From: Phycisphaeraceae bacterium
GTDB lineage: Bacteria; Planctomycetota; Phycisphaerae; Phycisphaerales; Phycisphaeraceae
Length of the DNA stretch: 48,307 nucleotides
Assembly: GCA_029260675.1 (NCBI GenBank)
Contig: JAJDCV010000282.1
Coordinates: 1-48,307 of the forward strand
Reading direction: 5' to 3'
Part shown: positions 9,207 through 31,447 of the stretch, in pieces
Layout of the letters: each line of letters opens with the position of its first letter
Position numbering within the stretch: position 1 is the first letter of the stretch
Notes under the pieces: model-generated
Database searches by the model: none
Told to the model about the DNA's origin: nothing
The model's input: the letters and a program-made list of their open reading frames with translations, nothing else
Position numbers and translations under genes: made by a program

Positions 9207-10037
9207 ATGCCGAACCTCCGGCTGAACTGCCGACCCGGCTCGCTGATCGGGGTCGCCTATTGCCTGAGCCTGGCGATGCTGTGCCTCTTGTGGCTACCGC
9301 CACAAAATTCAGAAGCACGGACCTCATCGAACTACGGAACCAGGGTGAAGTCTTCCCGGTTCAATGTTGATCCACGGTGTGGCCAATGCCATCAGCCGCA
9401 ACGGACCAAGTCCCACCCGGTGGATGTCGTCCCGAGCTTCGCCCTACCCAAAGCCTTCCCCCTCACGGACGGGCTGATGACCTGCCAGACATGCCACGAC
9501 GTGATCACCGCACGAGATCATACCGAAGCCCGGATCACCAAGACCGTGAAGCTCAAAGGGTCGAGCCGGGGCAACAACCTGTGCCAAAGCTGCCATAAGC
9601 AGACCGACTCAACGCTCGCCCGGTCGATGCACGGCTCACTGGGCGGGTTGGCACACAGACGGCCTGATACGGATCAGCCCCGTCGGCCCCGGTGGGACAG
9701 TTCAGGGAACAACACCAACCGTTCAAACCTGTGCCTGACATGCCATGACGGCGTACTCGCATCGGAGTCACGTATCCGCATGGGCAACTTCAGGCCCAAC
9801 CAATCCACCCGGGGCGACCACCCGGTCAATATCTACTACGCACAAGCCGCCCGGGACATGATCCTCAATGATGCGGATGGTCGGCTCGTGAATAGCACGC
9901 AACTCGACCCCCGCCTGCGTCTCTTCAATGGCGAGATGAGCTGCGAGACCTGCCACGACCTCTATTCAGAAAACGAGCGCTTGCTTGTGATCTCGAATCA
10001 GCGATCAAAACTCTGCATGTCCTGCCACGAGATCTGA
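9207..10037 (+). CDS. hexahaem c-type cytochrome, secreted
   Basis: Six CXXCH motifs (CGQCH, CQTCH, CQSCH, CLTCH, CETCH, CMSCH) and a hydrophobic N-terminal signal. It ends CMSCHEI, like doubled-CXXCH (paired CXXCH) family proteins. Confidence 0.8.
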   Translation: MPNLRLNCRPGSLIGVAYCLSLAMLCLLWLPPQNSEARTSSNYGTRVKSSRFNVDPRCGQCHQPQRTKSHPVDVVPSFALPKAFPLTDGLMTCQTCHDVITARDHTEARITKTVKLKGSSRGNNLCQSCHKQTDSTLARSMHGSLGGLAHRRPDTDQPRRPRWDSSGNNTNRSNLCLTCHDGVLASESRIRMGNFRPNQSTRGDHPVNIYYAQAARDMILNDADGRLVNSTQLDPRLRLFNGEMSCETCHDLYSENERLLVISNQRSKLCMSCHEI

Positions 10038-10122
10038 CCGCGGGGCGACCCAATGGCCTGGCCTCATAACAGGCCTGACCGGATCACAACACCTGCTTGA
10101 ATATGCCCGCGCGACTCCGTGA

Positions 10123-11754
10123 TCAGTTGTTGTAGTTCTCGTCGTCGTGGTCCTCGCCGTGGCACAACAGCGTACACGTCCCGCTTCGGTTCCCCTGGTC
10201 GATGAAGAACGGCCCGACGTTGCCCGCCTTCGGCGAGGGGAAGACCACGGAGTTGTCAAAGTTGATCAGGTGGCTGTTGTTGGCTGTGGTCCCAGCTACG
10301 GAGTCGATCCCGTGTGCGTCGTGACAGACCGAACACGGGGTGTCCTCACCGCGGATGTGTTTATCATGCTCCTTGAAGCTGTCGTCATTGAGGATGCTGT
10401 TGCGTTCGTGACACCGGTAACACAGGGCGTAGGCCGAAGCGCTCTCGGTGGTATGGTCTGTGGTGTCGTAGCGTGCGAGCAGCAGCGGACGGAAGCTTGA
10501 GCCGTGCGCTCCGCCTGCCCCGGATCCCGGAGAGTCCGAGCCGTGGCAGTCGGTGCAATAAACCCGGCTTGAGACGGTCCACGCGGGCTTCAGGCTCGGG
10601 ACATCGTTGTTGCGTCCGGTCGTGGTGACCGGGTGGAACGAAATGGCGGACGGGCTGAACTCCTCGCGGGTGTTGTTATTGACAATCTCACGGCTGATCC
10701 ATGGCTGAACGGCGGCCTGGTCGTCGTGGCATTTGAAGCAGACCTCGAACTCGAACTGAGCCGGCGACACCGGGGCCCCGGAGCTGGTGATGCCGTCGAC
10801 CGATCCGAAGTTCGGATGGATGTTCGGTGCCGCCGCCTGCCCGGTGTCGATCGTGTGCGGCTCGTGGCAGTCCGCACAGCCGACGTGATCGGGGATCGGG
10901 TCCAGGGGGTCTGAAATGCTATCGGTGTCGTGGACAAACAACTTGCCCATGTCGGCAGCGATGTTCGGTCCAGAGGTCGTGCCGTCGTGGCAGGCCAGGC
11001 AGGCGGCCCGGTCATTGACGCCATTGAGCAGGAACGGCCCGCTGGGCGCGGTGTGTGTCTTGTGACAGCCCTGGCAGTTCTCATGCCCGGTCACGGTGGT
11101 CGAGAGGATCTGGTGACAGCTGTTGCAAAGCTGTGAGTTGGTGTTATCCATCACCGTGAAGTCCCCGAACGTGTTGTCGTGCGCGTCGTGGCAGGTCGTA
11201 CACTGCAGTTCCTGGTTCGTGTCCAGCCGGACGTCGGCGGGAAGCCCCGCGGGGGAACGCAGTTTCGGGTCCTGCCCTGCCAGGACGGAGTCGTAGCGGA
11301 ACGAGACGGGGTGATCGTCTGAAAGATCGGTCTGGAGGTTGGCGTCCGAGATCGGCATGGTCGTCACGCCGCCGGACATCTGGATGACCTGGCCCTGCGA
11401 CACCACGCTGCCCAAGGCGATCGTGCCGTCGTGACAAGACAGGCACATCTTGCTTGTGCCGGTCGGCTGACCCGGGACGGCGTCCAGCGAGCTGCTGGAA
11501 TACACGGTGTAGGCACCGACCGGCTCGAAACGGTTCCACAAAGGATGCACCGGCGAAGCCGCGTGGGGCGTGTGGCAGAACACGCACACCCGCTGCTCGG
11601 TTGCGGCGACGATCGGCCCCGGACCCGTCACCGACAGGTTGTGCGGCGTGTCGATGATGCTGGCGCCCTGCCCGATCTGACCCTCGGCCGACACAGACAA
11701 AAATACCGCCGACACGATCACGACGGCCGACAGGATAACGGTGAGTGCTTTCAT
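10123..11754 (-). CDS. dodecahaem c-type cytochrome, Sec signal, no lipobox
   Basis: Eleven CXXCH motifs plus a terminal CTLLCH (CX3CH). The N-terminus MKALTVILSAVVIVSAVFLSVSA is signal-like. The DTPHNLS...CVFCHTPH pattern matches the Geobacter-type paired-CXXCH family. The ATG overlaps the upstream NHL gene stop (ATGA). Confidence 0.85.
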   Translation of the reverse strand: MKALTVILSAVVIVSAVFLSVSAEGQIGQGASIIDTPHNLSVTGPGPIVAATEQRVCVFCHTPHAASPVHPLWNRFEPVGAYTVYSSSSLDAVPGQPTGTSKMCLSCHDGTIALGSVVSQGQVIQMSGGVTTMPISDANLQTDLSDDHPVSFRYDSVLAGQDPKLRSPAGLPADVRLDTNQELQCTTCHDAHDNTFGDFTVMDNTNSQLCNSCHQILSTTVTGHENCQGCHKTHTAPSGPFLLNGVNDRAACLACHDGTTSGPNIAADMGKLFVHDTDSISDPLDPIPDHVGCADCHEPHTIDTGQAAAPNIHPNFGSVDGITSSGAPVSPAQFEFEVCFKCHDDQAAVQPWISREIVNNNTREEFSPSAISFHPVTTTGRNNDVPSLKPAWTVSSRVYCTDCHGSDSPGSGAGGAHGSSFRPLLLARYDTTDHTTESASAYALCYRCHERNSILNDDSFKEHDKHIRGEDTPCSVCHDAHGIDSVAGTTANNSHLINFDNSVVFPSPKAGNVGPFFIDQGNRSGTCTLLCHGEDHDDENYNN

Positions 11755-12842
11755 GGCTGGTCCTCCCCCAGGTAGTCGAACACCTGAACCCGACGGTTAT
11801 AGGTATCGGCCACCCAGATACGGTTCTGTGGATCGACCCATATCCCGGCGGGCAGCCAGAACTGCCCGCGTCCGCGTCCCTCTTCGCCGAAGGTCATCAG
11901 AAGCCGGCCCTGCGAGTCGAAGACCTGCACCGCCTCGAAGGAGGCGTCGATGACATACAGGTGGCCATCACGATCGACCCCCAGCCCCTTGGGACGGGCG
12001 AAGTAACCCGGCAGGTTCCCGCCGCGGCCGATCTGACGGATCGGTTTAAGGTCCACGTCGAATTGCTGCACACGGAAGTTCAACGTATCGCTGACGTACA
12101 GCCGGCCCGAAGCGTCGACCGCGACGTTCGTCGGGAAGTTGAACCCGCCCAACTCCACACCGCGCCCACCCAGGCGCTGGATCAGCTGCCCATCTAGGGT
12201 CATCACCACCACCAGGTGAGCCTTCACGTCCGCGACGAACAGCCGGCCACGTTCGGCGTCGATCGCGATGCCCGCCGGCCGACTTAGTAATTCCCCACCC
12301 ATCCTCTTGAGATAGACCCCGTGCTGGTCAAACACGACCAGATCACCCTCGACAGAGTCCGCGACGATCAATCTGCCCGCCGGGTCGTACGCCACGCCGG
12401 TCGGTTGCGAGAACCGGCCCACGTCATCCTTGTTATTGTCATCGTCCTCGTCGGCGGGCGGGGCCCATTGCTGATACACCCGTGTAGACAGGTCAAAGAC
12501 GTGGACGACCTGGGCGTTGGAATCCGCAACAAAAAGCCTGTCCGCGCCGTCCGAGCAAACAGCGAAGGGGCTGAGCATTTTCTCCTCAGGCTCACGCCCG
12601 AACAGCGTCGCGCCGACGTTATCCAGAAACGACTTGGCGGGTTTGAGGTCCTGACCGCTGCTTATCGCGCCGACGTAACGTATGCGCGCCTTTTCGGGCG
12701 GCGCTGGCCAGATGGGGTCGTCCGGTTGTGCCTGGAAGATCATCCCCGCCGGGGTCTGACACCCTAGCAGCGCGGCCACCGCGCCCAAGGCGCAAGCACG
12801 CCGTAACCATCCGCCGACCGATGCGAGATGTATCCCTGTCAT
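11751..12842 (-). CDS. NHL-repeat six-bladed beta-propeller lipoprotein
   Basis: Internal ATG at 12842 (MTGIHLASVGGWLRRACALGAVAALLGCQTP, lipobox LLGC) with GGAAAGG upstream. The longer ORF to 13100 would overlap the barrel gene. It has repeated F..P.G.A.D..GRLyVAD...RV..F units. Confidence 0.8.
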   Translation of the reverse strand: MTGIHLASVGGWLRRACALGAVAALLGCQTPAGMIFQAQPDDPIWPAPPEKARIRYVGAISSGQDLKPAKSFLDNVGATLFGREPEEKMLSPFAVCSDGADRLFVADSNAQVVHVFDLSTRVYQQWAPPADEDDDNNKDDVGRFSQPTGVAYDPAGRLIVADSVEGDLVVFDQHGVYLKRMGGELLSRPAGIAIDAERGRLFVADVKAHLVVVMTLDGQLIQRLGGRGVELGGFNFPTNVAVDASGRLYVSDTLNFRVQQFDVDLKPIRQIGRGGNLPGYFARPKGLGVDRDGHLYVIDASFEAVQVFDSQGRLLMTFGEEGRGRGQFWLPAGIWVDPQNRIWVADTYNRRVQVFDYLGEDQP

Positions 12843-12864
12843 GGCTTGCCTTTCCGGGTGGATG

Positions 12865-14913
12865 CTAGAAGTTCCTCCGTACGCCGGCAAATAAGCTCTG
12901 CGACGTCGTGTCGCTTGAGTTGGAGCTGAACACCTCGTTGCGGATCTGCAGGAACGCGCTGGTCTGTCGATAACGCCAGTCCAGGTCAAACCGCTGCTCA
13001 AAAGACGTGCTGTCTTCGCCGATGTCTTCGGAAAGGTCGAACCACAGCAGCTCGATGCGGCCGTTGAGTTTCCTGCTGAACTCATGAGTGAACGTGCCAC
13101 TGGCGGTGAACTGAGTGGCCGTGTTGTCTTCGTCGATAAACTCGGTCTCGGTGTGCTGAACCCGGATGTCCAGCGAGTCCGTCGATGAGATACGGTCGTG
13201 CAGGATCACCTCGAAGCGGGTCTGCTCGAACGGGGAGATATCGCTGTCGTGGTCGATGTGTTCGGCCTCGAAGATCAGGACGCCGAGCCGGTATTCCACG
13301 CCCACCGCCAACTCCTCGACGTTGTTAGGCACCACCACGATGAGCCGATCGCTGCGGATAGATTCGTCGATGCTCAGGTACCGCATAAACACCCCCAGGC
13401 CGGACAACGGGCCCTCTTGTAAGTCGTACCGAAGGCCCAGGCCGACGGTGTTTGAGGTGACGTTGTGTGCCGGCTCGGGATCGACCGTGTAATCGATCTC
13501 GACGTTCTCGCCGGCGGTGATCCGACCGGTCAGGACGCGCCGCAACTCGATGCGGTTGGCCAGCACGGTGACCCGGTAGTCGATGCCCTCGCTGTAAACA
13601 GCCGGGCCGACCGGGTTGGCGATGTTGTGTACGACGATGCTTGCCGCGTCGATATTGCTGCGTGCGAGGATCACGGGGCTGGGTCCCACAAAAGCGTGCG
13701 GCTCGCGGACAACCTGAAACGGTTGGCCACGTTCGCCGTTGTCTTGCTGATCGTAGCGCAGGCGCAGGTCGCCGGAGAGCCGGCCGCGGGGCACCAGCTT
13801 CGTGTATTCCAGCGCCAGGTCGCCGAACTTCCCATCGGTCTTGAACCCGTCCGAGAAATCCTCGGCATGTCCGCCCACCTGTGCCGTCGTGACGAGGCTG
13901 TCGTACAGCCGATGACGGACAAGCGCATCGCCGTTGTAAGCACGCTGGGTCAGCCCCGCGCGTTGCTGATCCAGCGCGGTGAAGTGGTACCGGGACTCCA
14001 GGGTCGGGGAGTGCGTGAGCCTCACGATCTCATCCCATCGGAACCTCTCTTCGGCGAAGTCGCCCTGCTGATCGAAGAACTCGAAACGCGATCGGATGTT
14101 GCTCTGGTGATCGTTGCCGAAATCCACCGTATGGGTCAGGTCGGTGTCGTGCCGGGTGTAATGGATATCCGCCCTGACCGGCGCAGTCAGGTCGATTTTG
14201 TTAAGCCGGTAGTTGAAATCCAGGTCCTGATATTCCCCGAGGTTGATCTGGCTGGAGATATCTACAAGGTCTTCGATCTGGTCGAAGCTGTTATTCCCGC
14301 TTGTGGACGGATCATTCTGGCTGGTTTTTCGCTGTGTGTAGCTGAAGCTGTGCCGGGCCTGGGGGAGCGTGACCAGCCAGTTGAAACCGGAGGCGGTGTC
14401 CGTGCTCTCGATCGTCGGGCCGAACTGCCGGTCCAGCAGTGTCTGGAACTGCCGGGTGAAGACGGTCAGGGGGGTGTTGCTTCGCCGCAGGATCGTCGCC
14501 CGCGCGTCGTATTCCTGGAGCGTTTCACCGACCTGGCGGTCCCCGCTGGGCGTGTCGCTGTCGAAGTCGTTTTGCTCAAGAATCATCGACCCGAACAGCG
14601 ATAGATGCACCAGGTTAGGGTGCCGGATAAACCCGTCCGTCGAGACCTCGAACAACTCGCGGAACTCCTGCTCGGTCTCGGTGGTGGTGGGTTGCCCGGT
14701 GGTGTCCGAGGTGTCTTCCTGCCAGCGGTACTCCAGCCCCAGCGAAGCATGGACGTTGTCGAACTCCAGCAGCGGCAACTCCCGCCGGGGGTTGATAACG
14801 ATCGGATCCTCCTGGCCATAGACCGGGCCGCAGACCCCAAGCAGCATCGACATCCCGGTGGTCAGTAACGCCGGGCGTGCGGGGTGTCGCACATTCAGTT
14901 TATGCGGTGTCAT
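12865..14913 (-). CDS. large outer-membrane beta-barrel protein (porin-like component)
   Basis: 682 aa with a signal-like N-terminus (...MLLGVCGPVYGQED). There are no long hydrophobic helices. Amphipathic short strands rich in Y/F/R/D/T/N/G alternate throughout. The C-terminus ends ...LFAGVRRNF, with the terminal Phe typical of OMPs. The ATG overlaps the upstream cytochrome stop (ATGA). Confidence 0.65.
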   Translation of the reverse strand: MTPHKLNVRHPARPALLTTGMSMLLGVCGPVYGQEDPIVINPRRELPLLEFDNVHASLGLEYRWQEDTSDTTGQPTTTETEQEFRELFEVSTDGFIRHPNLVHLSLFGSMILEQNDFDSDTPSGDRQVGETLQEYDARATILRRSNTPLTVFTRQFQTLLDRQFGPTIESTDTASGFNWLVTLPQARHSFSYTQRKTSQNDPSTSGNNSFDQIEDLVDISSQINLGEYQDLDFNYRLNKIDLTAPVRADIHYTRHDTDLTHTVDFGNDHQSNIRSRFEFFDQQGDFAEERFRWDEIVRLTHSPTLESRYHFTALDQQRAGLTQRAYNGDALVRHRLYDSLVTTAQVGGHAEDFSDGFKTDGKFGDLALEYTKLVPRGRLSGDLRLRYDQQDNGERGQPFQVVREPHAFVGPSPVILARSNIDAASIVVHNIANPVGPAVYSEGIDYRVTVLANRIELRRVLTGRITAGENVEIDYTVDPEPAHNVTSNTVGLGLRYDLQEGPLSGLGVFMRYLSIDESIRSDRLIVVVPNNVEELAVGVEYRLGVLIFEAEHIDHDSDISPFEQTRFEVILHDRISSTDSLDIRVQHTETEFIDEDNTATQFTASGTFTHEFSRKLNGRIELLWFDLSEDIGEDSTSFEQRFDLDWRYRQTSAFLQIRNEVFSSNSSDTTSQSLFAGVRRNF

Positions 14914-15575
14914 CCCGGCACCGCCTCACCCTGGTCGGGCGTCTGAGGTGATACATCACCGGAATTAATTTCGTTTAGCGCCTCCGGCTTAAGAAAATAA
15001 GTCCGGTCCCCACCGTGGCCGGAGTGGCAATCCAGGCATGATCGTTTCGGGTCCGTGTGCGCCTGGGGGGTCGGCCCCAGTGTGTCGGGCATCGCGTGAC
15101 AGGTGACGCACATGACCCGGGGCGGATCCCGGAGCATGAATACCGTCGTCGACTGGTGCGGGTCGTGGCAGGCCATGCAGTCGCCAACCGCCACGGGCCC
15201 GTGCATCAGCTCGAACTGCTCGGGTTTATTGCCGTGGCATTGGACGCAGACCGAGGCATCGGGCATCAGCGCAGCCGGTTCATGTGAGGTGTGGCAGGCC
15301 TGGCAATTTCCCTCGGAATAAGGCTCGTGGAAGTTGTACTTAATCGCCAGCCGTCTGCGAGCCTGCGCCGCGGGTGAGTTGGATAGTGCTTCTGGCGGGG
15401 CGTTGGGGTCCGGGACGCCGTCGAAGAAGAATGACAGCGTCTCGTAGTGCTCTTCCGGGTTGCAACCGGTCAATGCCAACAGCGGGGGCACGCCCAGGAC
15501 CAGAACAGGCAACAGGTACAGCACCCCGACGAAGCGCTTCCGCCGGACGCAACCTGACCTGACGCGGGCTTTCAT
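14910..15575 (-). CDS. pentahaem c-type cytochrome lipoprotein
   Basis: Five CXXCH motifs (CQACH, CVQCH, CMACH, CVTCH, CLDCH) and a lipobox LLALTGC. The ATG overlaps the NHL gene stop (ATGA). Confidence 0.85.
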   Translation of the reverse strand: MKARVRSGCVRRKRFVGVLYLLPVLVLGVPPLLALTGCNPEEHYETLSFFFDGVPDPNAPPEALSNSPAAQARRRLAIKYNFHEPYSEGNCQACHTSHEPAALMPDASVCVQCHGNKPEQFELMHGPVAVGDCMACHDPHQSTTVFMLRDPPRVMCVTCHAMPDTLGPTPQAHTDPKRSCLDCHSGHGGDRTYFLKPEALNEINSGDVSPQTPDQGEAVPG

Positions 15576-16861: not shown

Positions 16862-17023
16862 AACCAGTTGCTCCCGCCACTTGCCCAGCCCTGAAGCTCA
16901 ATCCACTGCAACGGGTTATAATACCTGTATCCGGAAATCGGTGCCGAGGTCGATAAAAGGCGAGAAGACACGAACGGCGTGGCACCTGTTTTTTTAATTG
17001 AAGCCTTAACAGGAGCCGCTGGT

Positions 17024-17047
17024 CGGGCTGGTCGAGAGACCAGCCCG
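17024..17047 (-). terminator. perfect 10-bp GC-rich stem-loop just downstream of the tetrahaem gene (terminator or attenuator)
   Basis: The arms cgggctggtc and gaccagcccg flank a gaga loop, 19 nt after the stop at 17066. No clear U-tract follows on the minus strand, so its function is uncertain. Confidence 0.35.
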
Positions 17048-17065
17048 CCAGTGGCCTTTTATTGG

Positions 17066-17686
17066 CTATTTTATGTGGCAGGCCAGGCACAGCTGGCTGC
17101 CGTTGTTGGTGACGCGGAGCAACTCTGGCAGGTTCGCCTTATTGTGAACCGAGTGGCAAGACGCGCAACTGACGACGCTCTCGGCCTGACCTGCAACGGT
17201 CATGGACCGGACCCGCACGCCGTTGGCCTTGGGGTCGGGAGCCAAGCCGGTGTCGGCGAAGTCGTACACGGCCACGGCACCGACCGGGTGGTCGTCGCTG
17301 AGGTCGCCCGTGCCGCCACCCATCTGCTTGCTGGCACCGATGAACGTGGTACCGTTGGTCGTGCCGCCGAAGCTATCTAAGGCGATCGACCCGTCGTGGC
17401 AACTCATGCATGCCTGACTGTCACGGTCCAGGCCGGCGAAACCGTCGTTGGATGTCTGGCCTTCATAAAGGGTGTAATTGGCATACGAGGGAACCTCGTG
17501 GTTCCACAATAGCCCAAGCGTGGCGCCATTGGGCGCGTTGTGAGGCGCGTGGCAGGGCTGACAGATCGTCGAGCCAGACCAGCTCTCGGCACTGAAGTCG
17601 TGGGCGGAGCCTGAAAGGGCCGCCGAGGCCACCCCCGCGAAGACCAAGACACAGGCCATCGATAGGATGTGTTGACTGAGTTTCAT
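17066..17686 (-). CDS. small secreted tetrahaem c-type cytochrome
   Basis: ATG at 17686 (MKLSQHILSMACVLVFAGVASA) with GGAG 8 nt upstream. The ORF-track start at 17728 is a TTG. Four CXXCH motifs (CQPCH, CMSCH, CASCH, CLACH). It ends CLACHIK. Confidence 0.8.
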   Translation of the reverse strand: MKLSQHILSMACVLVFAGVASAALSGSAHDFSAESWSGSTICQPCHAPHNAPNGATLGLLWNHEVPSYANYTLYEGQTSNDGFAGLDRDSQACMSCHDGSIALDSFGGTTNGTTFIGASKQMGGGTGDLSDDHPVGAVAVYDFADTGLAPDPKANGVRVRSMTVAGQAESVVSCASCHSVHNKANLPELLRVTNNGSQLCLACHIK

Positions 17687-23730: not shown

Positions 23731-25926
23731 CTAGATCAAACCAAGCCCCGCCAGGACGATCAACGTGACCATCGCCAGCCCGATCGACATCGCCAATACA
23801 CCTATGACTAAAGAGGCCCTGCGCTGCCAAACCGGTGGCGTCTCCATACGCAGCGACTCCAGTTCGCCCGACTGCCTCAGCTGGCGGTATTCCATCGGCC
23901 GTTCGTGACGCAACTCGTCCTCGTCCACCACCCCGGTGAAGATCACATCATCCACCGGGAACTTCTCCGGGCGCAGATTCGCGTTAAAGAAGTGGATCGT
24001 AAAGATGAACCCCACCGCCAGCAGCGCTTCATACCCGTGCACGATGGTTGCGATGTTGAATCCCCACCCCGGGATGACGATCGAGAACACCGCGGGGAAC
24101 CAGAGCATCAACCCGGTGCCCCCGATGATGAAAGTCCCGACGATCTCGGCCCAGTAGTCGAACTTTTCCCAGTAGGTCCAACGGTCAAGCGCCGGCTTGC
24201 CCTTGCCGGTGAAGAACCAGCGGAACATCCCCAGGCAATCGGAGAAATCCTTGAGCCTGGGCAGGAGGGTGTGCGGGCCGGTGAGGAGTTTACGCGCCGG
24301 TTGCCGGCTGAATCGTTTGTAGATCCCCACGAAATGGATCACGAAATTCAAGCACAGGATGATCGCAAAGAGCCGATGCCAGAGCCCCGCGGCGTACCCC
24401 CCGCCCAGCATCACGGTCAACCCCTTGGCCCATCCCTGGTCGGAGAAGAACAAAGGCATCCCGGTCAGTGTCAGCCCGAAGAAGGTGATCGCGACCAGCG
24501 CGTGGTTCAGCCGGTTGATCTTGCGGAAACGCTTGATCGACTTGCCCTTGGCGGCGGTGTGCAGCTTCGCCTTGCGTGCGGTGTGTCGGCGGCGCTCGAT
24601 CAGCGACCGGATCAGCCACAGCACCGAGTGCACGCCGTAGAACACGAACGTGATGCTCATCAGGATCACGAAGTAGAGCCAGACGCCGTGGAGGATCGGG
24701 AAGTTCTCCCCGTCACGGTAATCGGCGTGCGGCATGAACTGTGCGAACTTGGCGTTGGCGGATTTGTGACAGGATCGGCAGGTGTCCACGAGGTTGTCCG
24801 CGTGAAGCCGGGACATCGGGTCGGCGACCGGCTGGATGTCGTGCGCCCCGTGGCAGTCGCTGCACCGGGCGGCCCGGCTGGAGCCCAGCTCGTTGACCTG
24901 CCCGTGATAACTCATCCGGTAGGTTTCGTAGAGCGAGGCCTTACCCCGCTTGTCGTTGTCGATGCGGTCGTGGCACTGACCGCACTCCCCGATGATGTCA
25001 CGCATAAACCCGGGGGTGGCGGCGTGGGTGATCGCGTGGGAGGCGTGGCAGTCGCTGCAGACCGGGGCGTTGGGGTCGCCTGCCGTGAGCTTTTGGCCGT
25101 GGATGCTGTTGGCGTAGACCTCCTCGATGCCGCGGTGGCATTGGCCGCAGGTTTCGGGGACCTGATTACGATGGATCTTTGAGGCCTCGTCGGCGGCGGG
25201 CCTGATTTCGTGCCCGCCGTGACAGTCGGCGCAGGTCGCGGCGACGATCAGCCCCGCCATCTTCACCGCCCGGCCGTGGACGCTCTGCATGTAGCTCTGA
25301 ACGTATTCGGTCTCATCGTGCCCGTTGGTTGTCTTCTCCTGGTGCTGGCTGTGGCAGCCACCGCAGAGATTGATGACGTTCAGCGGGTAGGTTTTCGACC
25401 GGCGGTCCGAGGACGGGTAGACGTCGTGCCCGCCGTGGCAATCGGCACAGGACGGCGCGCGGACGTCCCCGTCGGCGGCCGCCTCGGCATGGATGCCCCG
25501 GCGGTGTTCGGCCGCGGCCGGCTCGTGACAACTGGCCGTGCAACTGGCCGGCTCGAGTGTCATCGCGTGAGGCAAGACCTCCGCGTCCTGGTGGCAATCC
25601 GTGCATGCCAGCGCGGCGTGCGGGCCGTCCATAAGCGCATCAGGCGGCGTGAAAAGCGTTGGCCGGGATTCGGACTGACGATCCAGCAACATCGGGTCCT
25701 GCGGCGGCGCGACCATCGACCGGCGTTCCGATGGAGACAGGTCGGTGATCCGCCGTTGGCCGTGGCAGTCGTAGCAGCGGTCGTTCTGGGTCTGGGCCTG
25801 GGTCAACCTGACCGCCTGTGCCTGAGGCCAAGGCCCGGTCACCAGGAGAGCAACCATCGCCAGCAGGCCGGACGCGGCTAGACCGGCGGCGGTGGGATTG
25901 CTCGAGATCGGTTTCGGCCTTGGCAT
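23731..25926 (-). CDS. CbcL-like fusion: periplasmic multihaem c domain (11 motifs) plus C-terminal b-type cytochrome membrane domain (HydC/FdnI-like)
   Basis: Signal peptide, then 10 CXXCH motifs plus CTASCH. About six TM helices follow, with conserved His residues (NHALVAITFFG, LWHRLFAIILCLNFVIHF, IVHGYEALLAVGFIFTIHFFN). Confidence 0.8.
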   Translation of the reverse strand: MPRPKPISSNPTAAGLAASGLLAMVALLVTGPWPQAQAVRLTQAQTQNDRCYDCHGQRRITDLSPSERRSMVAPPQDPMLLDRQSESRPTLFTPPDALMDGPHAALACTDCHQDAEVLPHAMTLEPASCTASCHEPAAAEHRRGIHAEAAADGDVRAPSCADCHGGHDVYPSSDRRSKTYPLNVINLCGGCHSQHQEKTTNGHDETEYVQSYMQSVHGRAVKMAGLIVAATCADCHGGHEIRPAADEASKIHRNQVPETCGQCHRGIEEVYANSIHGQKLTAGDPNAPVCSDCHASHAITHAATPGFMRDIIGECGQCHDRIDNDKRGKASLYETYRMSYHGQVNELGSSRAARCSDCHGAHDIQPVADPMSRLHADNLVDTCRSCHKSANAKFAQFMPHADYRDGENFPILHGVWLYFVILMSITFVFYGVHSVLWLIRSLIERRRHTARKAKLHTAAKGKSIKRFRKINRLNHALVAITFFGLTLTGMPLFFSDQGWAKGLTVMLGGGYAAGLWHRLFAIILCLNFVIHFVGIYKRFSRQPARKLLTGPHTLLPRLKDFSDCLGMFRWFFTGKGKPALDRWTYWEKFDYWAEIVGTFIIGGTGLMLWFPAVFSIVIPGWGFNIATIVHGYEALLAVGFIFTIHFFNANLRPEKFPVDDVIFTGVVDEDELRHERPMEYRQLRQSGELESLRMETPPVWQRRASLVIGVLAMSIGLAMVTLIVLAGLGLI

Positions 25927-26010: not shown

Positions 26011-26026
26011 TGCATACCCCATGCCA
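26011..26026 (-). promoter_or_regulatory. sigma-54 type -24/-12 promoter
   Basis: Minus strand reads TGGCATGGGGTATGCA with correct GG-N10-GC spacing. It lies about 85 nt upstream of the ATG at 25926. Confidence 0.55.
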
Positions 26027-26177: not shown

Positions 26178-27137
26178 TTACGCCTGTGTGTGCATAGGGT
26201 CCAGGAAACTGTGTTTGTAATACACCAGCAGCCCCGCAAAACTCAGCAGCAGGCACACCGCCAGCACCCCCATCACCGTCTGCTGCCGGCGCACTTCCCG
26301 CTGGCGCTTGATCAGCTCGTGGGTCTCGGTCGTGTGATCGGTGACTTCCTGGATTTCCGCTGCGAAGTTATCGATCTCGCGCATGTTGAAGCTGTGGAAG
26401 ATCTGCCGGAGCTTGGAGTGGACCTCACCGACGTGGTGATGGAGTTTTTCCAACTCGAGGTTGCGGTACCCCCAGGACTCCAGTTCGTTGTAGAGCTGAC
26501 CCGACTCGCTGATACGCTGCTCGGTCTCGGTCAACGTCTGCTTGATCTGCTTAACCACCGCCATGGTGGAGGCTTCGTGACAGGGGCTGCAACGCCCCGC
26601 CTCGGCCCGGCCTGCGGTATCGATGATCTGGGGCGTCGCGTCGGTGATCTTGTGTGAGCCCTGGCCGTGGCAGTACAGGCAGGTCGGGTCGCCGAAGTCA
26701 CCGTGCGGGCTGCCCAGGTGTTTTTCCTTGATCTGGTCGTGGCACTTGCCGCAGAAGTAGGAGACGCTTCGGCCGGTGGTGTTGCTGACGATGCCGTCCT
26801 GTGAACGCCGCATCGTCAGGAACTCGGGGTTGCGTCGCTGGTGTGCGGCACGCTTCAGGGCGTCGGTGGATTCGAACTGATCCGGGCGGACCGCCGGGTT
26901 GCCCCCGTGACAGCCATCGCACCCGACGTTGGCCTCGTAATGGACGCTGTGCTTCCACTGCAGCTCGACGATCTCGCTGGATCGGCCGGGCAGATCCCGA
27001 TGGCACTGCACGCAGGCGTTGTCGGCATAGCGGTCGGTCGGGGCCGAAGGCTCCGCCGCCGGGGGGGTGGTTTTGTCCGCGGGGCTGGCGAGGGTTAACG
27101 CCGCCACCAGGCAAGCCGACAGGATGGAGCCGGTCAT
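26178..27137 (-). CDS. pentahaem c-type cytochrome with C-terminal TM anchor (probable c-subunit of the Rieske/cyt b complex)
   Basis: Five CXXCH motifs (CVQCH, CDGCH, CGKCH, CLYCH, CSPCH), then a coiled-coil-like segment and a C-terminal TM helix VMGVLAVCLLLSFAGLLVYY. The ATG overlaps the subunit IV stop (ATGA). Confidence 0.8.
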   Translation of the reverse strand: MTGSILSACLVAALTLASPADKTTPPAAEPSAPTDRYADNACVQCHRDLPGRSSEIVELQWKHSVHYEANVGCDGCHGGNPAVRPDQFESTDALKRAAHQRRNPEFLTMRRSQDGIVSNTTGRSVSYFCGKCHDQIKEKHLGSPHGDFGDPTCLYCHGQGSHKITDATPQIIDTAGRAEAGRCSPCHEASTMAVVKQIKQTLTETEQRISESGQLYNELESWGYRNLELEKLHHHVGEVHSKLRQIFHSFNMREIDNFAAEIQEVTDHTTETHELIKRQREVRRQQTVMGVLAVCLLLSFAGLLVYYKHSFLDPMHTQA

Positions 27138-27808
27138 AGCTGTGACTCCTTATTATCCTGCGTATCGGGCGAATCTGGGGATAAATCCGGGGGCGGGGGC
27201 GGCGAGTCAAGGATCCGGCGTATGGCCTTGCGCTCGTGGGCGATCATGATGTAGAAGATGACCACCGTCACCGCCGTCATCACGAACAGGAACGGCTGTT
27301 CCAGGAAGTACTCACTGGGCGAAGCGAGTTGCTCGTGCCCGTCCACCATGTGCTCCGGCCAGCCGCCCCAGATCGTCAGGCCCATCAGCACGAAGATAGA
27401 GGCCGTCACCACCAGCCGATACCCCCAGCCCGGCCGACGGTGCGCGCCGCGGCGGTACCAGAACGGCAGCAACAACACCGCCAGCAACACCGGGCCCTGG
27501 CTTAACACGCCCAGGGTCTTACCGCTGATCCCAAACAGCTCCGTGGGCATCAGACGCAGGTGCTGGTAGACCGCCAGGAAATACCACTCGGGTTTGATCC
27601 CCATCGGTGTGGCGCCCTGCGGGTTGGCCGGCTCCTCGACGTGCATCACGCCCTTGAGCCCCGCCATCTCCAGCAGCACCGGCAGTGTCGCCAGCAGCAT
27701 GATCACCGCCAGCGTACACAGCACCACCACGATCATCTTGATGTTCTCGTTGGGCCAGAACGGCTCGAGCTGGTCCGGTCGGTATTGCTTTTTGTAATCA
27801 ACAGCCAT
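27134..27808 (-). CDS. cytochrome b C-terminal half (b6f subunit IV-like)
   Basis: 224 aa membrane protein with the PEWYFL motif (GIKPEWYFLAVYQ). Confidence 0.8.
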   Translation of the reverse strand: MAVDYKKQYRPDQLEPFWPNENIKMIVVVLCTLAVIMLLATLPVLLEMAGLKGVMHVEEPANPQGATPMGIKPEWYFLAVYQHLRLMPTELFGISGKTLGVLSQGPVLLAVLLLPFWYRRGAHRRPGWGYRLVVTASIFVLMGLTIWGGWPEHMVDGHEQLASPSEYFLEQPFLFVMTAVTVVIFYIMIAHERKAIRRILDSPPPPPDLSPDSPDTQDNKESQL

Positions 27809-27834: not shown

Positions 27835-28494
27835 TTACAACGGTCTGGATATCCCGGTTCGGCGGATCATAGCGAAGTGCATAGCCATGAACGCGCTGAT
27901 TGTCGCGGGGATGATCCAGATATGCAGCGCAAAGAAGAATCCCAGCGTCTCGCCGCTGATCGCCTCGCCACGCCTGACCCAGCGGACGATGTCCTCCCCG
28001 ATCACCGGGATCGCGCTGGGGATCTCCGTCCCGACCTTGGCGCCCCAGTAGCTCAGCTGCGTCCAGGGCAGCAGGTACCCGGTGAACGCCAGGATCAGTG
28101 TCAGCATCAGCAGCACCACCCCGCTGACCCAGTGCAGTTCGCGCGGCGAGCGGTAGACCTTGTAGTACGCGATCCGGGCCATGTGCATCAGGACCATCAC
28201 GATCATCAGGTTCGCGCTGACGGTGTGGATCCGCTGCACCAGCCAGCCCATCGAGACGTTGGACTTGATGAAGGTCACGCTGTCCCAGGCGTTGGCCGGG
28301 TCGGGCTTGTAGTACATCAGCAGCAACACGCCGGTGAAGACCTGAACGAGAAAAATCAACAGGGACAGCCCCCCGAAGCACGCCGCCCAACCCAGGGTCT
28401 TGGGGACGCGCTTCTTTGTAACGTTCTTCTCGATCAACGGCGTGAGGTTGTACCGCCGATCGAACCACCCGAAGATTGTTTTGACGATTCGCAT
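27835..28494 (-). CDS. cytochrome b N-terminal half (cytochrome b6-like)
   Basis: Four-helix cytochrome b core (FGGLSLLIFLVQVFTGVLLLMYY, RIHTVSANLMIVMVLMHM, HIWIIPATISAFMAMHF). ATG at 28494 preceded by AAGGAA. A GTG lies one codon upstream at 28497. Confidence 0.85.
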   Translation of the reverse strand: MRIVKTIFGWFDRRYNLTPLIEKNVTKKRVPKTLGWAACFGGLSLLIFLVQVFTGVLLLMYYKPDPANAWDSVTFIKSNVSMGWLVQRIHTVSANLMIVMVLMHMARIAYYKVYRSPRELHWVSGVVLLMLTLILAFTGYLLPWTQLSYWGAKVGTEIPSAIPVIGEDIVRWVRRGEAISGETLGFFFALHIWIIPATISAFMAMHFAMIRRTGISRPL

Positions 28495-28503
28495 CACGGT
28501 TCC

Positions 28504-28947
28504 TTACACAGAGATAATGATCTTGCCGTCTTTGACCTCGAAGGGGATGGGCTTGAGCGGCTCGTTCACGGGCCCGCTGACCACGCCCCCGTCCGAGCCG
28601 AACACCGCGCCATGACAGGGGCAGTGGAACTGGGCATCGCTGCTGACCCAGTTCACGGCACAACCCAGGTGCGGGCAAGAAGCGCTAAAAACGTGGGGCC
28701 CATCCGCGGTCGCCAGGATGATGACCTGCAGGCCGCGGTAAGCCTCGTACCTCGCCTGACCCTGCACGAGCTGATCCAGCGGGATCTCCAGCGGCTTGCC
28801 TTCACCGATGCGCGAGGGTTGGCTGGTCACGAACGATGCCACCGGATACGCGACCATCGCCGCGGACGCAGCGGTCATCGCACCGATGCACGCCCGGCAG
28901 AACGTCCGTCGGCCGTTGTGTTGTTCACATGTCTTGTCACAGCTCAT
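28504..28947 (-). CDS. Rieske [2Fe-2S] protein with twin-arginine signal
   Basis: CPHLGC...CPCHG Rieske boxes and an N-terminal NGRRTFCRA Tat-like motif. The ATG overlaps the upstream stop (ATGA). Confidence 0.85.
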   Translation of the reverse strand: MSCDKTCEQHNGRRTFCRACIGAMTAASAAMVAYPVASFVTSQPSRIGEGKPLEIPLDQLVQGQARYEAYRGLQVIILATADGPHVFSASCPHLGCAVNWVSSDAQFHCPCHGAVFGSDGGVVSGPVNEPLKPIPFEVKDGKIIISV

Positions 28948-30008
28948 GGTGTCGGCTCCAACTCGTAGTAGTCCAAAAGGAGTTCGGCGGCCCGCTTGAA
29001 GCTGGCGGCGGCCGCCTCGCTGTCCCCGGCCTGTTCCTGGATCAGGCCCAGCAGGTAATGCGCCCGCGGTTCGGAGGGGTTCTCCGTGAGCACCTTCCGC
29101 GTCAGCTTCTCCGCCTCAGGCAGTTCGTCACCGCCGCGGCGGGTCATCACAAACGCCAAGCCCAGCGCCGCGTCTGACGCCTTGGGATCCTGTTCCAAGG
29201 CCCGGTTGAAATGCTGCTCGGCCTCGGAGAGCCTGCCTCGCCGCAGCTTGAGTGTTCCCATCCCCACCCACGCGGCCGTCTGCTTCGGATCCAATTCAAG
29301 CGACTCGGCGTACTTCTGCTCCGCTAACGCCACCAACCCCCGGGCGGAGAGCTGGCCGGCCAGCATCGTCAGCCGGCGGGCCCGGGCCTGGTCTTCGGTC
29401 AACCCGGAATCGGCCTGCGGGTGACGCCTAGCCTCGAACTGCTCGGCCGACAGCTTCCCCGCCGCCATCAGCAGCGCGTCAGCCATTCGGTCCGAAAAAT
29501 CATTTGTCAGCGCGGCGACGGCGTGAACGATTCGACCCTCGGCATCAATCACCGCCACGCTCGGCAGCACCGCCACACGGTAGGCATCAAACGCATCTCG
29601 TTTGGCGTCGTGCAGGACGGCGATCGGGGACACGTCGGCCCCCCCGCCTTCCGTCCCCTCGGCTTGCTCTAAACGGGTGACAATCAACATCGCATCGATC
29701 GGCTCACCGCGGAACCGTTCATCGGCCAGAACCTCTTTCAACTGGGCGCAGGCACGCAAGGTTCCGCTGTGGTACAGCTCCCCGAATACCAGAACCACCA
29801 TCCGGCCGCGCAGCGAATCGGTGCTGATGACTTCCCCCGCCTCTTCTGTGAACTGGATTTTCGGGGCATCGTCGCCCTGCCGCAGGTGGGTCACCGCCAA
29901 AGCGGGATCGACCCAGGCCGTTAAAGCCAGCAGGGCCAGCCCGACAACGGCCCAGGCAGGGACCAAGCCGGCTCGGATATCAGGCGCATAGCGCTTGGCA
30001 AAGATCAC
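28944..30008 (-). CDS. membrane-anchored CXXC-less redoxin (TlpA-like fold) fused to TPR repeats (paralogue of 18067..19134)
   Basis: The GTG start overlaps the upstream cytochrome stop (GTGA). No in-frame ATG lies before the TM segment. The redoxin-like MVVLVFGELYHSGTLRAC lacks the CXXC. TPR-like repeats are present (AEQKYAESLELDPKQTAAWVGMGTLKLRRGRLSEAEQHFNRALEQDPK...). Confidence 0.7.
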   Translation of the reverse strand: MIFAKRYAPDIRAGLVPAWAVVGLALLALTAWVDPALAVTHLRQGDDAPKIQFTEEAGEVISTDSLRGRMVVLVFGELYHSGTLRACAQLKEVLADERFRGEPIDAMLIVTRLEQAEGTEGGGADVSPIAVLHDAKRDAFDAYRVAVLPSVAVIDAEGRIVHAVAALTNDFSDRMADALLMAAGKLSAEQFEARRHPQADSGLTEDQARARRLTMLAGQLSARGLVALAEQKYAESLELDPKQTAAWVGMGTLKLRRGRLSEAEQHFNRALEQDPKASDAALGLAFVMTRRGGDELPEAEKLTRKVLTENPSEPRAHYLLGLIQEQAGDSEAAAASFKRAAELLLDYYELEPTP

Positions 30009-31447
30009 TGCGAACCTCCTGTGTTGTAAGCCGTCTCGCCCGCCGGCTTATCAGTCGCACCGCCGGCTTGTACCGCCTCGCGGGTGTAGGACCGGGTGTC
30101 GTGGCAGCCCGGCGAGCAGCTCCCGCCGGTCGGCGTCGTCTGGAACTTGATCTCGAGCAGCCAATCGCTGTCGCCGAACGGGACCGAATCGCGGATGTGG
30201 AACGGGTTGCGGGATGCGTGGACCTCGTGGCAGGCCCGGCAGGTCCGACCCTTCTTCTGATTGACGTGGACCCAGTGCAGGTTCAGCTCGCCTTCTCGGA
30301 ACCGCGTGAGCCCCTTGCCGTGACGGTCCTCAACCAGATCGGGCTGGTGGCAGGTGAAGCATAACCCGTAACGCTCAATGGTAAACGGGGCATAAAACTG
30401 GGGGGGGTAATCCTTGACAAGCATGTTGGCCCGGTCGCCTGTGTGAGGCTGGTGGCAGACGGTGCAGCTATCCTCTCGGATCGGGCCGTGGTGATCCGGG
30501 TTGTCCGCGAGCAGTTCCGCCATGTCGGTCAGCGTCCGGCCATCTTCTGTCTGGATCGGTTTGTCGTGACAGCTCAGGCACATCTGGGTCTGATCCGCCC
30601 GTTGCAGCTTGGGTAGCGGCGAGTTGTGCGGCGCGTGGCAGCCCAGGCACCCGCCGGATTCGGTCATGGCCCCGTGGACCACCGGGGCGCCCGCCAGCTG
30701 CTCCTGTATCTGTGTATGACAGCTGAAGCACAGGCCCGGGGCCTCCTGATTCAGTTGGTACTGGAAGTCGGAGGCATGGGCGTCGTGGCAGTCGGTGCAG
30801 CCGTCCTTGACCGGCGCATGGGTGTGCCGCTGCTGTCCAGGATCACCCTTGAGGTCCTGGCCGTGGCAGGTCAGACACAGGGCCTGCGGTTTATCGACCA
30901 GCAGGCTGGGCTCCCACGAGGAATGCGGCTCGTGGCAGAGGATGCAGGCCCCGGACGCAACAGGGCCGTGCTTGAACTTCTTCTGGGAAAAACCGTCTTG
31001 TTTGTGGCAACTCACACACAGACCACGCGTCGGGTCGTCGACCAGCATCATCTGGTAGTCCGACCCGTGCGGGTCGTGGCACTGGGTGCATCGGCCCTGT
31101 TCAACCGGGGCATGGATCACGTCACGATGCTCCAGCGTGTGGCAGGTCTGACACAATTGATCGCCTGGCAAAGTGAGCTTGAACGTGTGCTGGGATTCCG
31201 AGAGGTATTCGTGACAGGCCTCGCACTTACCCTGAGCGACCGGGCCGTGCGTGACCTTGGATGTGCCGACCCCCGCGTGGCAGTTGACGCTCTGACAGGT
31301 ATCGGTCTTGGTGGTGGGTCTGGGCTCCGGGGTCTCGCCCCGAAGCTGACCGAACCCGCCGGCAACCAGAACGATCCACAAGCAAGCCACGCCGCAGCGA
31401 CGCATGGTAGCGCGCCGTCGTATCGAGTCGATCAGTTTATCCGCCAT
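30005..31447 (-). CDS. 15-haem-motif c-type cytochrome (paralogue 3)
   Basis: 13 CXXCH motifs plus an N-terminal CQSVNCH (CX4CH) and a C-terminal GGSCSPGCH (CX3CH). The C-terminal roughly 110 aa are collinear with the two other paralogues. Confidence 0.85.
   Translation of the reverse strand: MADKLIDSIRRRATMRRCGVACLWIVLVAGGFGQLRGETPEPRPTTKTDTCQSVNCHAGVGTSKVTHGPVAQGKCEACHEYLSESQHTFKLTLPGDQLCQTCHTLEHRDVIHAPVEQGRCTQCHDPHGSDYQMMLVDDPTRGLCVSCHKQDGFSQKKFKHGPVASGACILCHEPHSSWEPSLLVDKPQALCLTCHGQDLKGDPGQQRHTHAPVKDGCTDCHDAHASDFQYQLNQEAPGLCFSCHTQIQEQLAGAPVVHGAMTESGGCLGCHAPHNSPLPKLQRADQTQMCLSCHDKPIQTEDGRTLTDMAELLADNPDHHGPIREDSCTVCHQPHTGDRANMLVKDYPPQFYAPFTIERYGLCFTCHQPDLVEDRHGKGLTRFREGELNLHWVHVNQKKGRTCRACHEVHASRNPFHIRDSVPFGDSDWLLEIKFQTTPTGGSCSPGCHDTRSYTREAVQAGGATDKPAGETAYNTGGSQ

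Follow-up and report, generated by a model that had tools for sequence, protein, structure and literature searches.

The 48,307-nucleotide stretch of DNA analysed here (the window: positions 1 to 48,307, forward strand, of contig JAJDCV010000282.1 in assembly GCA_029260675.1, from a Phycisphaeraceae bacterium) carries ten multihaem cytochrome genes between positions 9207 and 31447, together with genes for a predicted outer-membrane barrel, beta-propeller lipoproteins and candidate quinol-oxidising membrane modules. Homology and gene order suggest that this block is probably a respiratory extracellular-electron-transfer (EET) supercluster of the Phycisphaerae, organised as three operons, with a cluster of the type that encodes OmcE nanowires as its outer part.

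Translation and motif counting gave 100 haem motifs in the ten open reading frames (ORFs), 91 of them CXXCH and 9 CX3CH/CX4CH, distributed from left to right as 6, 12, 5, 4, 15, 15, 12, 11, 5 and 15. The leftmost gene (9207..10037) lies on the plus strand and the remaining nine on the minus strand, where the genes are packed as three operons with 4-nucleotide overlaps or very short gaps. Not one CXXCH occurs in the 34 other translated ORFs of the window, and the clustering of cytochromes is therefore far beyond chance. CXXCK is absent from all ten cytochromes, and their histidine counts permit bis-His ligation of every haem but one, the exception being in the 6-haem protein 9207..10037. An original prediction, made from the sequence alone, had given the same motif counts and had noted the lack of CXXCK, the lack of molybdopterin or FeS reductase subunits, and a flank of Ccm and Ahb haem genes. 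The counts were reproduced exactly and the absence of CXXCK was seen again; Pfam and NCBIfam scans likewise found no molybdopterin or FeS reductase subunit among the window proteins and identified CcmA, CcmB, CcmC, CcmE and CcmF, HemA, an AhbA-AhbB fusion and AhbC/AhbD-like genes.

An OmcE-family cytochrome and its relatives

The gene at 17066..17728 (minus strand, as are all genes described below unless otherwise noted) encodes a tetrahaem cytochrome of the OmcE family and is a candidate for the gene of a nanowire subunit. Its likely true start is the ATG at 17686, which gives a protein of 206 residues as in its relatives. Compared by phmmer with the proteins of solved structures, it aligned end to end with 9yuq_N (E 9.7e-20) and with 7tfs_A (E 1.2e-17); it is also 33% identical to Geobacter sulfurreducens OmcE over 237 aa (E 2e-24) and scores 158 bits against a hidden Markov model (HMM) of the OmcE family. 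The structure 7TFS is the G. sulfurreducens OmcE filament, and a search with its sequence found a protein of G. sulfurreducens at 98% identity, with purHDE, resB and ccsB as neighbours (locus L018). The same neighbourhood is given for omcE by Petersen et al. (bioRxiv 10.1101/2025.10.22.684050), and 9YUQ is the OmcE nanowire bundle of D. soudanensis WTL from that work. Alignment of 50 OmcE homologues showed the four CXXCH motifs to be invariant, together with four more histidines (H43, H63, H147 and H195 in the numbering of the window protein). Tetrahaem proteins from Phycisphaerae and Verrucomicrobiota retain all eight ligand positions, as do the N-terminal domains of the 12-haem proteins of these groups. 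As judged by these alignments, the window protein is homologous to the OmcE nanowire subunit over its full length. As a separate observation, one Verrucomicrobiota locus (L009) has two OmcE-like tetrahaem genes in tandem.

Two other cytochromes of the block are related to OmcE. The 12-haem protein 10123..11754, which has a signal peptide, was resolved by phmmer into an OmcE-like tetrahaem N-domain (about residues 11-215) and an 8-haem C-terminal extension. Its first 215 residues match 7tfs_A with E 1.5e-29 and 9yuq_N with E 4e-22, which is stronger than the tetrahaem protein's own matches, and are 37% identical to G. sulfurreducens OmcE over 228 aa (E 6.5e-35). The protein retains eight of eight conserved Cys-motif and His positions and is among the best-conserved proteins of the outer-membrane module between Phycisphaerae and Verrucomicrobiota (37-41% identity). 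The 6-haem cytochrome 9207..10037 on the plus strand resembles OmcE in its C-terminal half, where residues 198-275 score 37 bits against the OmcE-family HMM (9yuq_N, E 0.003), and it has only 11 histidines for its six haems. Its homologues adjoin the OmcE-like gene in L007 and L003/L008 and are absent from L004 and L001. Speculatively, this protein could cap a filament end.

Folding of the region directly after the OmcE-like stop codon, before the adjacent propeller gene, revealed a very stable RNA hairpin that lacks a U-tract (16985..17070, minus strand; minimum free energy -41.4 kcal/mol, z = -7.1, with none of 200 shuffled sequences folding as well). Such a hairpin could boost the yield of the major subunit over that of the accessory genes, and hairpins of comparable role are known from pilin operons.

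The outer-membrane module

In the direction of the minus strand, the module at 10123..17728 consists of the OmcE-like gene, a first NHL propeller, a 5-haem lipoprotein, the barrel, a second NHL propeller and the 12-haem cytochrome. The original prediction had drawn an outer-membrane porin-cytochrome operon at 10123..16861; a large barrel is indeed predicted within it, but the operon should be extended to 17728, because the 4-haem gene belongs in it. The first NHL-repeat beta-propeller lipoprotein (15572..16861, lipobox LTGC; Pfam NHL and DUF5128) is 30% identical to an NHL protein of the Geobacter omcE cluster (E 3e-35), and the second (lipobox LLGC; Pfam NHL, 113 bits) is 33% identical (E 6e-56). 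The latter gene is listed as 11751..13100, and its most likely start is the ATG at 12842, which places it at 11751..12842. The 5-haem lipoprotein cytochrome between the first propeller and the barrel (14910..15575, lipobox LTGC) matches MtrA (6r2q_A, E 2.6e-6) and shares 32% identity with the 8-haem cytochrome that the Geobacter omcE cluster encodes (E 5e-17). The predicted lipoboxes fit a periplasmic and outer-membrane arrangement of these proteins.

The barrel gene (12865..14913) encodes a protein of 682 aa that AlphaFold2 models, with a mean pLDDT of 80.4, as a beta-barrel of the outer membrane, with some 28-30 strands and a domain inserted at about residues 399-477. Foldseek returned large barrels only, with a top TM-score of 0.40 to MtrB (6r2q_B) followed by TonB-dependent receptors, FimD and LptD, and the barrel fold of the model is confident. 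The protein has no match to a Pfam family. A word-index search found ten relatives and an exhaustive profile search found 2719 representative clusters, the top named members being from Planctomycetota; the genome scan for barrel loci used a 7-sequence barrel alignment. Taken as a whole, the module has the content of a minimal omcE cluster, namely two multihaem cytochromes, two NHL propellers, an OmcE subunit and a large barrel, which is the composition that Petersen et al. gave for the minimal omcE nanowire clusters of Desulfuromonadia (bioRxiv 10.1101/2025.10.22.684050).

Inner-membrane and periplasmic genes

The original prediction had also named a CbcL-like module, a NapC/NirT-type module and a Rieske/split cytochrome b module as entry points at the inner membrane, and all three were found with Pfam and NCBIfam. 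The CbcL-like fusion (23731..25926) joins a periplasmic 11-haem c domain to a membrane cytochrome b of the FdnI/HydC type (PF01292, 31.4 bits against a cut-off of 30.1; 5-6 hydrophobic segments). Across 42 homologues at 51-80% identity, the 11 c-haem motifs and six histidines of the membrane domain are invariant, a pattern that fits a cytochrome b with two haems or more, attached to a haem wire in the periplasm. The family has at least 1771 homologues, of which the named ones are all from Phycisphaerae/Planctomycetota; an exact look-up of the window protein returned no identical record.

The adjacent gene (22171..23718) encodes a membrane-anchored quinol dehydrogenase module of the NapC/NirT/NrfH type with eight additional haems, making 12 in total. 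The module spans residues 43-193 (PF03264, 41.9 bits against a cut-off of 24.1) and is preceded by a single transmembrane (TM) segment at residues 38-56; the NrfH family TIGR03153 was not reached (44 bits against 134). Downstream in the same operon are two 15-haem cytochromes, one a lipoprotein with lipobox LSGC (20546..22174) and the other an MtrA/DmsE-like protein with a signal peptide (19131..20549; Paired_CXXCH, 209 bits; DmsE family, 155.6 bits and under the cut-off of 192). Each shares 39% identity with the 11-haem cytochrome encoded in the Geobacter omcE cluster, the lipoprotein with E 7e-66 and the other with E 3e-71 over 329 aa. A third MtrA/DmsE-like 15-haem cytochrome, the first gene of the Rieske operon (30005..31447), matches MtrA 6r2q_A with E 7.5e-12 and the same Geobacter protein at 35% identity (E 2e-54). 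The three are 40-42% identical to one another, in keeping with the earlier description of them as paralogues.

The Rieske operon continues with a redoxin-like domain protein that carries tetratricopeptide repeats (TPR) of the CcmH/CycH type (28944..30008; TPR_CcmH_CycH, 49.2 bits against 42), a Rieske 2Fe-2S protein (28504..28947; PF00355), a cytochrome b of b6/ExtP-like type (27835..28497; PF00033, 194.7 bits), a subunit-IV-like C-terminal part of cytochrome b (27134..27808; PF00032), and a 5-haem cytochrome with a C-terminal membrane anchor (26178..27137; TM residues 287-305). The last is likely the cytochrome c subunit of the Rieske/b complex. The b6/ExtP-like protein missed the cut-offs of two NCBIfam families, cytb_ExtP (227.9 bits against 290) and cytochrome b6 (232 against 325). 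The AhpC/Redoxin match of 28944..30008 is also under cut-off, and the protein has no CXXC, because it contains a single cysteine. Another TPR protein ends the CbcL-like operon (18067..19134; Pfam TPR families, with a weak CcmH/CycH-type match), and its gene keeps this position in L016, L017 and L020-L023. These two TPR proteins may serve specifically as chaperones for apocytochromes and not as thiol reductases.

Conservation across genomes

A synteny search revealed that the block is not unique. The full order is identical in the metagenome-assembled genome (MAG) 'Phycisphaeraceae bacterium OFTM326' (L001/L005/L020): a sensor operon comes first, then the 15-haem/Rieske and CbcL operons, and last the outer-membrane module. 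In 'Planctomycetota bacterium Dive100_bin3.48' (L004), where the locus examined begins inside the CbcL-like gene, the gene order is kept throughout the covered part, with 65-92% protein identity that extends into the Ccm/HemA flank. Variant loci occur in other Planctomycetota: in L016 (on a 5.5-Mb contig), L021 and L017, no Rieske operon lies between the kinase genes and the CbcL-like gene, and the outer-membrane module is inverted. Locus L017 comes from the complete genome record 'Planctomycetales bacterium ZRK34' (CP050848.1), which carries no MAG label. Two Planctomycetota that are more distant (L022 and L023) retain the sensor genes, the CbcL-like gene and the subsequent multihaem and TPR genes, and L023 additionally retains the NapC-type gene and two separate 15-haem genes. 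Given this synteny in related MAGs, the whole block is a conserved feature of the lineage and not a one-off.

The core order of the outer-membrane module, (tetrahaem)/NHL/multihaem lipoprotein/barrel/NHL/12-haem, was found at seven distinct loci of Phycisphaerae/Planctomycetota (L004, L001/L005, L003/L008, L006, L007, L016 and L017) and at seven of Verrucomicrobiota (L009-L015), the latter sharing the NHL/multihaem/barrel/NHL/12-haem core. The cytochrome encoded just upstream of the barrel varies from 5 to 21 haems in these Verrucomicrobiota loci, against 5 in Phycisphaerae.

The sensor operon (31790..35252) encodes a periplasmic protein of the phosphonate-binding type (34194..35252), a HAMP histidine kinase (33145..34197) and a second histidine kinase (31790..33124), all assigned by Pfam. 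Six loci were anchored on the CbcL-like gene (L016, L017 and L020-L023), and in each of them the sensor operon sits immediately upstream of the cytochrome operons. Divergent from it is a gene for a YgbA_NO-family protein (35408..35788, plus strand; PF11756, 'nitrous oxide-stimulated promoter'), and a gene of this family adjoins the sensor operon in five of the six (L016, L017, L021, L022 and L023).

Relationship to known electron-transfer systems

According to the original prediction, the individual parts of the block resemble Geobacter components and their combination matches no described system. The first statement holds in that each part, the barrel excepted, has a Geobacter-type counterpart. 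The second is wrong for the OmcE-family proteins and the omcE-cluster composition, and for the Rieske operon, which resembles ExtOPQ. The likeness to the omcE clusters of Desulfuromonadia lies in an OmcE-family tetrahaem protein with the eight ligand positions, two NHL lipoproteins, a large barrel, two or more multihaem cytochromes homologous to those of Geobacter, and adjoining cytochrome-maturation genes, which are resB/ccsB (System II) at the Geobacter omcE locus L018 and Ccm genes (System I) in the window. Several differences are also apparent. The window barrel has no detectable sequence similarity to its Geobacter counterpart; the 12-haem protein with its OmcE-like N-domain is an addition with no counterpart at the G. 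sulfurreducens omcE locus; and the gene order differs, with glycosylation genes not adjacent and the cluster physically joined to inner-membrane quinol modules. The host is also different: the window comes from Planctomycetota, with relatives in Verrucomicrobiota, whereas omcE clusters have been listed in Thermodesulfobacteriota, Pseudomonadota, Aquificota, Campylobacterota and Nitrospirota (bioRxiv 10.1101/2025.10.22.684050).

Like Geobacter ExtOPQ(S) (PMC5877670), the Rieske operon combines a Rieske protein (about 15 kDa) and a cytochrome b (about 24 kDa) with two small proteins, a membrane subunit and a multihaem cytochrome, and with a large multihaem cytochrome ahead of them, within a cluster associated with EET. 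The operon parallels the ExtN-O-P-Q-S gene series. The c subunit of the window operon has five haems rather than four and a C-terminal TM anchor, and the rhodanese, the ExtI porin and the selenoprotein ExtKL of the Ext cluster are missing from the window. For the other two quinol modules the comparison is one of architecture. The Geobacter protein CbcL (GSU0274) follows the same logic as the CbcL-like fusion, in that a multihaem c domain is joined to a cytochrome b of the FdnI/HydC type, and Geobacter ImcH follows that of the NapC-type protein, being a NapC/NirT module with extra haems. The CbcL-like protein has 11 c-haems against 9 in CbcL, the NapC-type protein has 12 haems and one TM helix against 7 haems in ImcH, and the two window genes are adjacent in one operon, unlike those of Geobacter. 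Matches to CbcL and to the 'DFE' cytochromes of D. ferrophilus, obtained with FeGenie, have been noted in passing for Phycisphaerae (10.1101/2022.03.26.485925).

The porin-cytochrome systems MtrCAB and Pcc (OmaB-OmbB-OmcB) have in common with the window a large barrel, an MtrA-like periplasmic multihaem protein and a lipoprotein cytochrome. Among solved structures, MtrA is the best match of the 15-haem and 5-haem proteins, and MtrB is that of the barrel fold. MtrB has 26 strands; the window barrel lies outside the MtrB/PioB family and probably has more, and it is accompanied by NHL propellers and an OmcE subunit. No decahaem protein of the MtrC/OmcA type was found in the window (the OmcA/MtrC NCBIfam family reached 20.7 bits against 209), and MtrC/MtrF-domain matches above cut-off are only partial, in the 15-haem, NapC-type and CbcL-like proteins. 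Family searches led us to reject assignments to Mtr/Pcc, Cyc2 and catalytic NrfA/HAO systems. A check for homologues of soluble-substrate enzymes, which the original prediction had put forward as decisive, likewise found no protein at the Pfam or NCBIfam cut-off of a catalytic family: NrfA, HAO, OTR and MccA were all missed, the best being a partial NrfA match (17.2 bits against 24.1), and the closest MccA-type match in the PDB had E 0.013 (the CX15CH motif was not among the motifs searched). The proposal that the block is a conduit from the inner membrane to the surface thus stands as far as wiring is concerned, given the barrel, the MtrA matches, the lipoboxes and the lack of a catalytic family, but not in its claim of an unmatched arrangement.

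Multihaem cytochromes also occur with NHL beta-propellers in D. ferrophilus (DFE_0448-0451 and DFE_0461-0465; PMC5815863). The porin-multihaem clusters described from Verrucomicrobiota (PMC5615132; 10.64898/2026.05.27.727921), which include 8-haem periplasmic cytochromes reported by He et al., resemble loci L009-L015 in their porin and multihaem genes, the likeness being drawn from the published descriptions. The accounts of these Verrucomicrobiota clusters mention neither OmcE nor NHL proteins, and, unlike in the window, an OmcE-family subunit was not identified in any of the three studies.

A model for the block and its alternatives

These genes can be connected as a path from the quinol pool to the outside of the cell. 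Quinol would be oxidised by up to three modules, namely the CbcL-like fusion, the NapC/NrfH-type 12-haem protein and the ExtOPQ-like Rieske/split-cytochrome-b complex with its anchored 5-haem subunit. Next, the three 15-haem paralogues, which resemble MtrA and include one lipoprotein, would carry electrons across the periplasm. Cytochromes associated with the barrel would take them through the outer membrane to a polymer of OmcE-like subunits. The tetrahaem protein would polymerise outside the cell, with the barrel and its propellers serving to export or anchor the filament, and the neighbouring Ahb/HemA and Ccm genes would provide for the supply and attachment of roughly 100 haems. The direction of flow, which could be reduction of minerals or humics or the uptake of electrons, is not fixed by sequence.

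Several points weigh against this model. Formation of a nanowire filament by the tetrahaem protein is proposed from homology and gene layout, and AlphaFold2, run on that protein with a 50-sequence alignment and without haems, gave an unusable model (pLDDT 48.5). The barrel had no significant match to the 752-aa protein encoded next to Geobacter omcE, using either a 9- or a 142-sequence profile (the best full-sequence E was 0.053 in a database of seven sequences). The likeness to Geobacter CbcL and ImcH is one of domain architecture. In L022 and L023 there is no outer-membrane/OmcE module within 10 kb of the CbcL-like operon, and the widespread CbcL/NapC/15-haem core may therefore serve another purpose; because the core occurs in this form and is linked to YgbA_NO genes, that purpose might involve a soluble substrate. 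Furthermore, the role of cytochrome filaments in general is disputed in a paper entitled 'Lack of physiological evidence for cytochrome filaments functioning as conduits for extracellular electron transfer' (PMC11077965), and deletion of the NHL-associated cytochrome clusters of D. ferrophilus gave no phenotype on Fe(III) oxide (PMC9769857).

These considerations leave room for other readings. An unlikely but credible one is a porin-cytochrome conduit that functions without a nanowire, in which the tetrahaem and 12-haem proteins are monomeric, the barrel sheathes an MtrA-like cytochrome, and electrons leave to shuttles, humics or chelated metals. That MtrB gives the top TM-score for the barrel and that the 15-haem and 5-haem proteins match MtrA would both be expected of such a conduit, and the Verrucomicrobiota relatives come from humic bog, peat and thaw ponds, where humics have been proposed as the acceptor (PMC5615132; 10.64898/2026.05.27.727921). 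A conduit of this kind does not account as well for the full accessory set of nanowire-type omcE clusters, for the retention of all four of the extra histidines that are invariant in the OmcE family, or for a barrel that falls outside MtrB/PioB and has no Pfam match.

It seems improbable that the wiring runs inward, so that the quinone pool receives electrons from Fe(II), sulfide minerals, a cathode or a partner cell, with the Rieske/b complex reversed or feeding a high-potential acceptor. Sequence leaves the direction of flow free, a Rieske/b complex suits either uphill or downhill branching, and the NHL-associated multihaem clusters of D. ferrophilus were themselves proposed to serve in uptake (PMC5815863). 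A preprint on Tenderiales, an order of electroautotrophs, reportedly treats NHL proteins alongside multihaem cytochromes. Against this, only 3 of 139 Phycisphaerae operational taxonomic units in a boreal-lake survey had any putative oxidative-EET protein, the window holds no carbon-fixation or Cyc2-type genes, and its right flank reads as that of a heterotroph. Even less probable, and in our opinion very much so, is a multihaem system in the periplasm that acts on a soluble substrate such as NO, hydroxylamine, nitrite or a sulfur oxyanion, to which the outer-membrane module would be secondary. The recurrent YgbA_NO gene and the loci in which the CbcL/NapC/15-haem operon stands without an adjacent outer-membrane module speak for such a system. 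The lack of CXXCK is a weak argument against catalysis, since the active-site haems of HAO/ONR-type enzymes use CXXCH and thus remain compatible with the motifs found; the absence of HAO/ONR-family homology is the better argument, and it is joined by the failure of every protein to reach the NrfA, HAO, OTR or MccA thresholds, by histidine counts that allow bis-His ligation of all haems but the one in the 6-haem protein, and by the lack of molybdopterin or FeS catalytic subunits.

Returning to the supercluster with an OmcE-type outer part, the 12-haem protein might be a wired filament base that links the filament to the periplasmic cytochromes. This speculative suggestion comes from its OmcE-like domain, which keeps all the ligands and after whose fourth haem the chain continues into eight more. 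In its fullest form, which we consider rather doubtful, the 12-haem base would seed or end OmcE-type filaments in Planctomycetota and Verrucomicrobiota with its N-domain, its tail would thread the barrel of about 30 strands to reach the 15-haem cytochromes, and the 6-haem protein would cap the other end in some lineages. If true, this would provide concrete candidates for the initiation, anchoring, wiring and termination of cytochrome nanowires, and would make electroactive organisms of abundant heterotrophs of sediment and peat.

Phycisphaerae and Verrucomicrobiota are abundant in anoxic sediments, peat and lakes, where they degrade polysaccharides, and an OmcE-type cluster in these groups extends candidate long-range electron transfer to them. 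In Geobacter the corresponding genes are scattered, and the joining of likely entry points and regulators to the cluster gives a one-locus hypothesis for the whole pathway. To judge by homology, the new elements are an OmcE-type cluster in Planctomycetota, a distinct barrel family, the 12-haem OmcE fusion, and the linkage of these to likely quinol entry points; within a searchable library of titles and abstracts, no paper ties OmcE or cytochrome nanowires to a planctomycetotal gene cluster. Solved cytochrome nanowires come only from Desulfuromonadia and two archaea, and Petersen et al. named the filament base and tip as missing (bioRxiv 10.1101/2025.10.22.684050); the 12-haem OmcE fusion and the 6-haem OmcE-derived protein are candidates for these two parts. 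The arrangement in the complete ZRK34 genome record (CP050848.1) would be directly testable if that strain is cultured.

Putative regulation, haem supply and flanking genes

A consensus scan detected sigma-54-like -24/-12 elements upstream of the OmcE-like gene (17769..17784, minus strand; AGGTACGCCATTTGCA), of the CbcL-like operon (26011..26026, minus; TGGCATGGGGTATGCA), of the 15-haem/Rieske operon (31598..31613, minus; TGGCACACGATGTGCG) and of the ygbA-like gene (35332..35347, plus). Similar sites precede the OmcE-like gene in L004 and L008 and the 15-haem gene of L008, and the CbcL-like operon has equivalent sites in L016 (TGGCACGCGGTGTGCA) and L017. Such sites are not enriched in the window as a whole, with 2 found against 1.7 expected under a strict rule and 8 against 6.7 under a loose one (GG-N10-GC with at least 9 of 11 consensus positions). 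Four of the eight, however, are correctly oriented and fall within the four intergenic regions that matter here, which make up about 1% of the search space, and the case for their function as putative promoters is one of position, orientation and conservation of these four sites only. An NtrC-type sigma-54 activator/response regulator is encoded nearby (38530..39909, plus; Pfam); it was seen in three of the six CbcL-anchored loci (L016, L017 and L021) and also in L003/L008 and L007. Together, the putative promoters, the nearby sensor operon and the activator suggest co-regulation, in which the three cytochrome operons and the ygbA-like gene would form one regulon under this activator.

Between the ygbA-like gene and the activator gene lie two radical-SAM enzymes on the plus strand, assigned by Pfam, one AhbD-like (35868..37133; NCBIfam AhbD, 436 bits) and the other AhbC/NirJ1-like (37178..38521; NCBIfam AhbC, 479 bits), both scores being under the family cut-offs. 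A radical-SAM gene recurs in L016, L017, L022 and L023. On the other side of the block, the window begins with an AhbA-AhbB fusion (92..1315), the siroheme decarboxylase of the alternative haem pathway, which scores above cut-off for both halves (NCBIfam AhbA 248.7 bits, AhbB 246.8 bits) and has two each of the Pfam NirDL-like HTH and AsnC domains. It is followed by hemA for glutamyl-tRNA reductase (1120..2412; GlutR_N, Shikimate_DH and GlutR_dimer).

Next to these are the System I maturation genes, identified with Pfam, for CcmC (2585..3289), CcmB (3299..3976), CcmA (3973..4725), CcmF (6022..8184) and CcmE (8127..8654), all on the minus strand; the same Ccm gene order accompanies the cytochrome block in L004, L001/L005 and L006. 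Between ccmA and ccmF lies a gene (4751..6079) for a conserved protein of 442 aa that has hydrophobic segments close to either end and belongs to no Pfam or NCBIfam family. It occupies the same position in L001, L004 and L006 (28-50% identity), has a homologue beside ccmC in L003/L008, and may be a lineage-specific Ccm component. At the opposite end of the window, the right flank (41067..48093) encodes a sodium:solute symporter, a DUF4874/DUF4832 protein, a ROK-family protein, a nucleotidyltransferase and a GHMP/galactokinase-like kinase, and because of this gene content the host reads as a sugar-using heterotroph.

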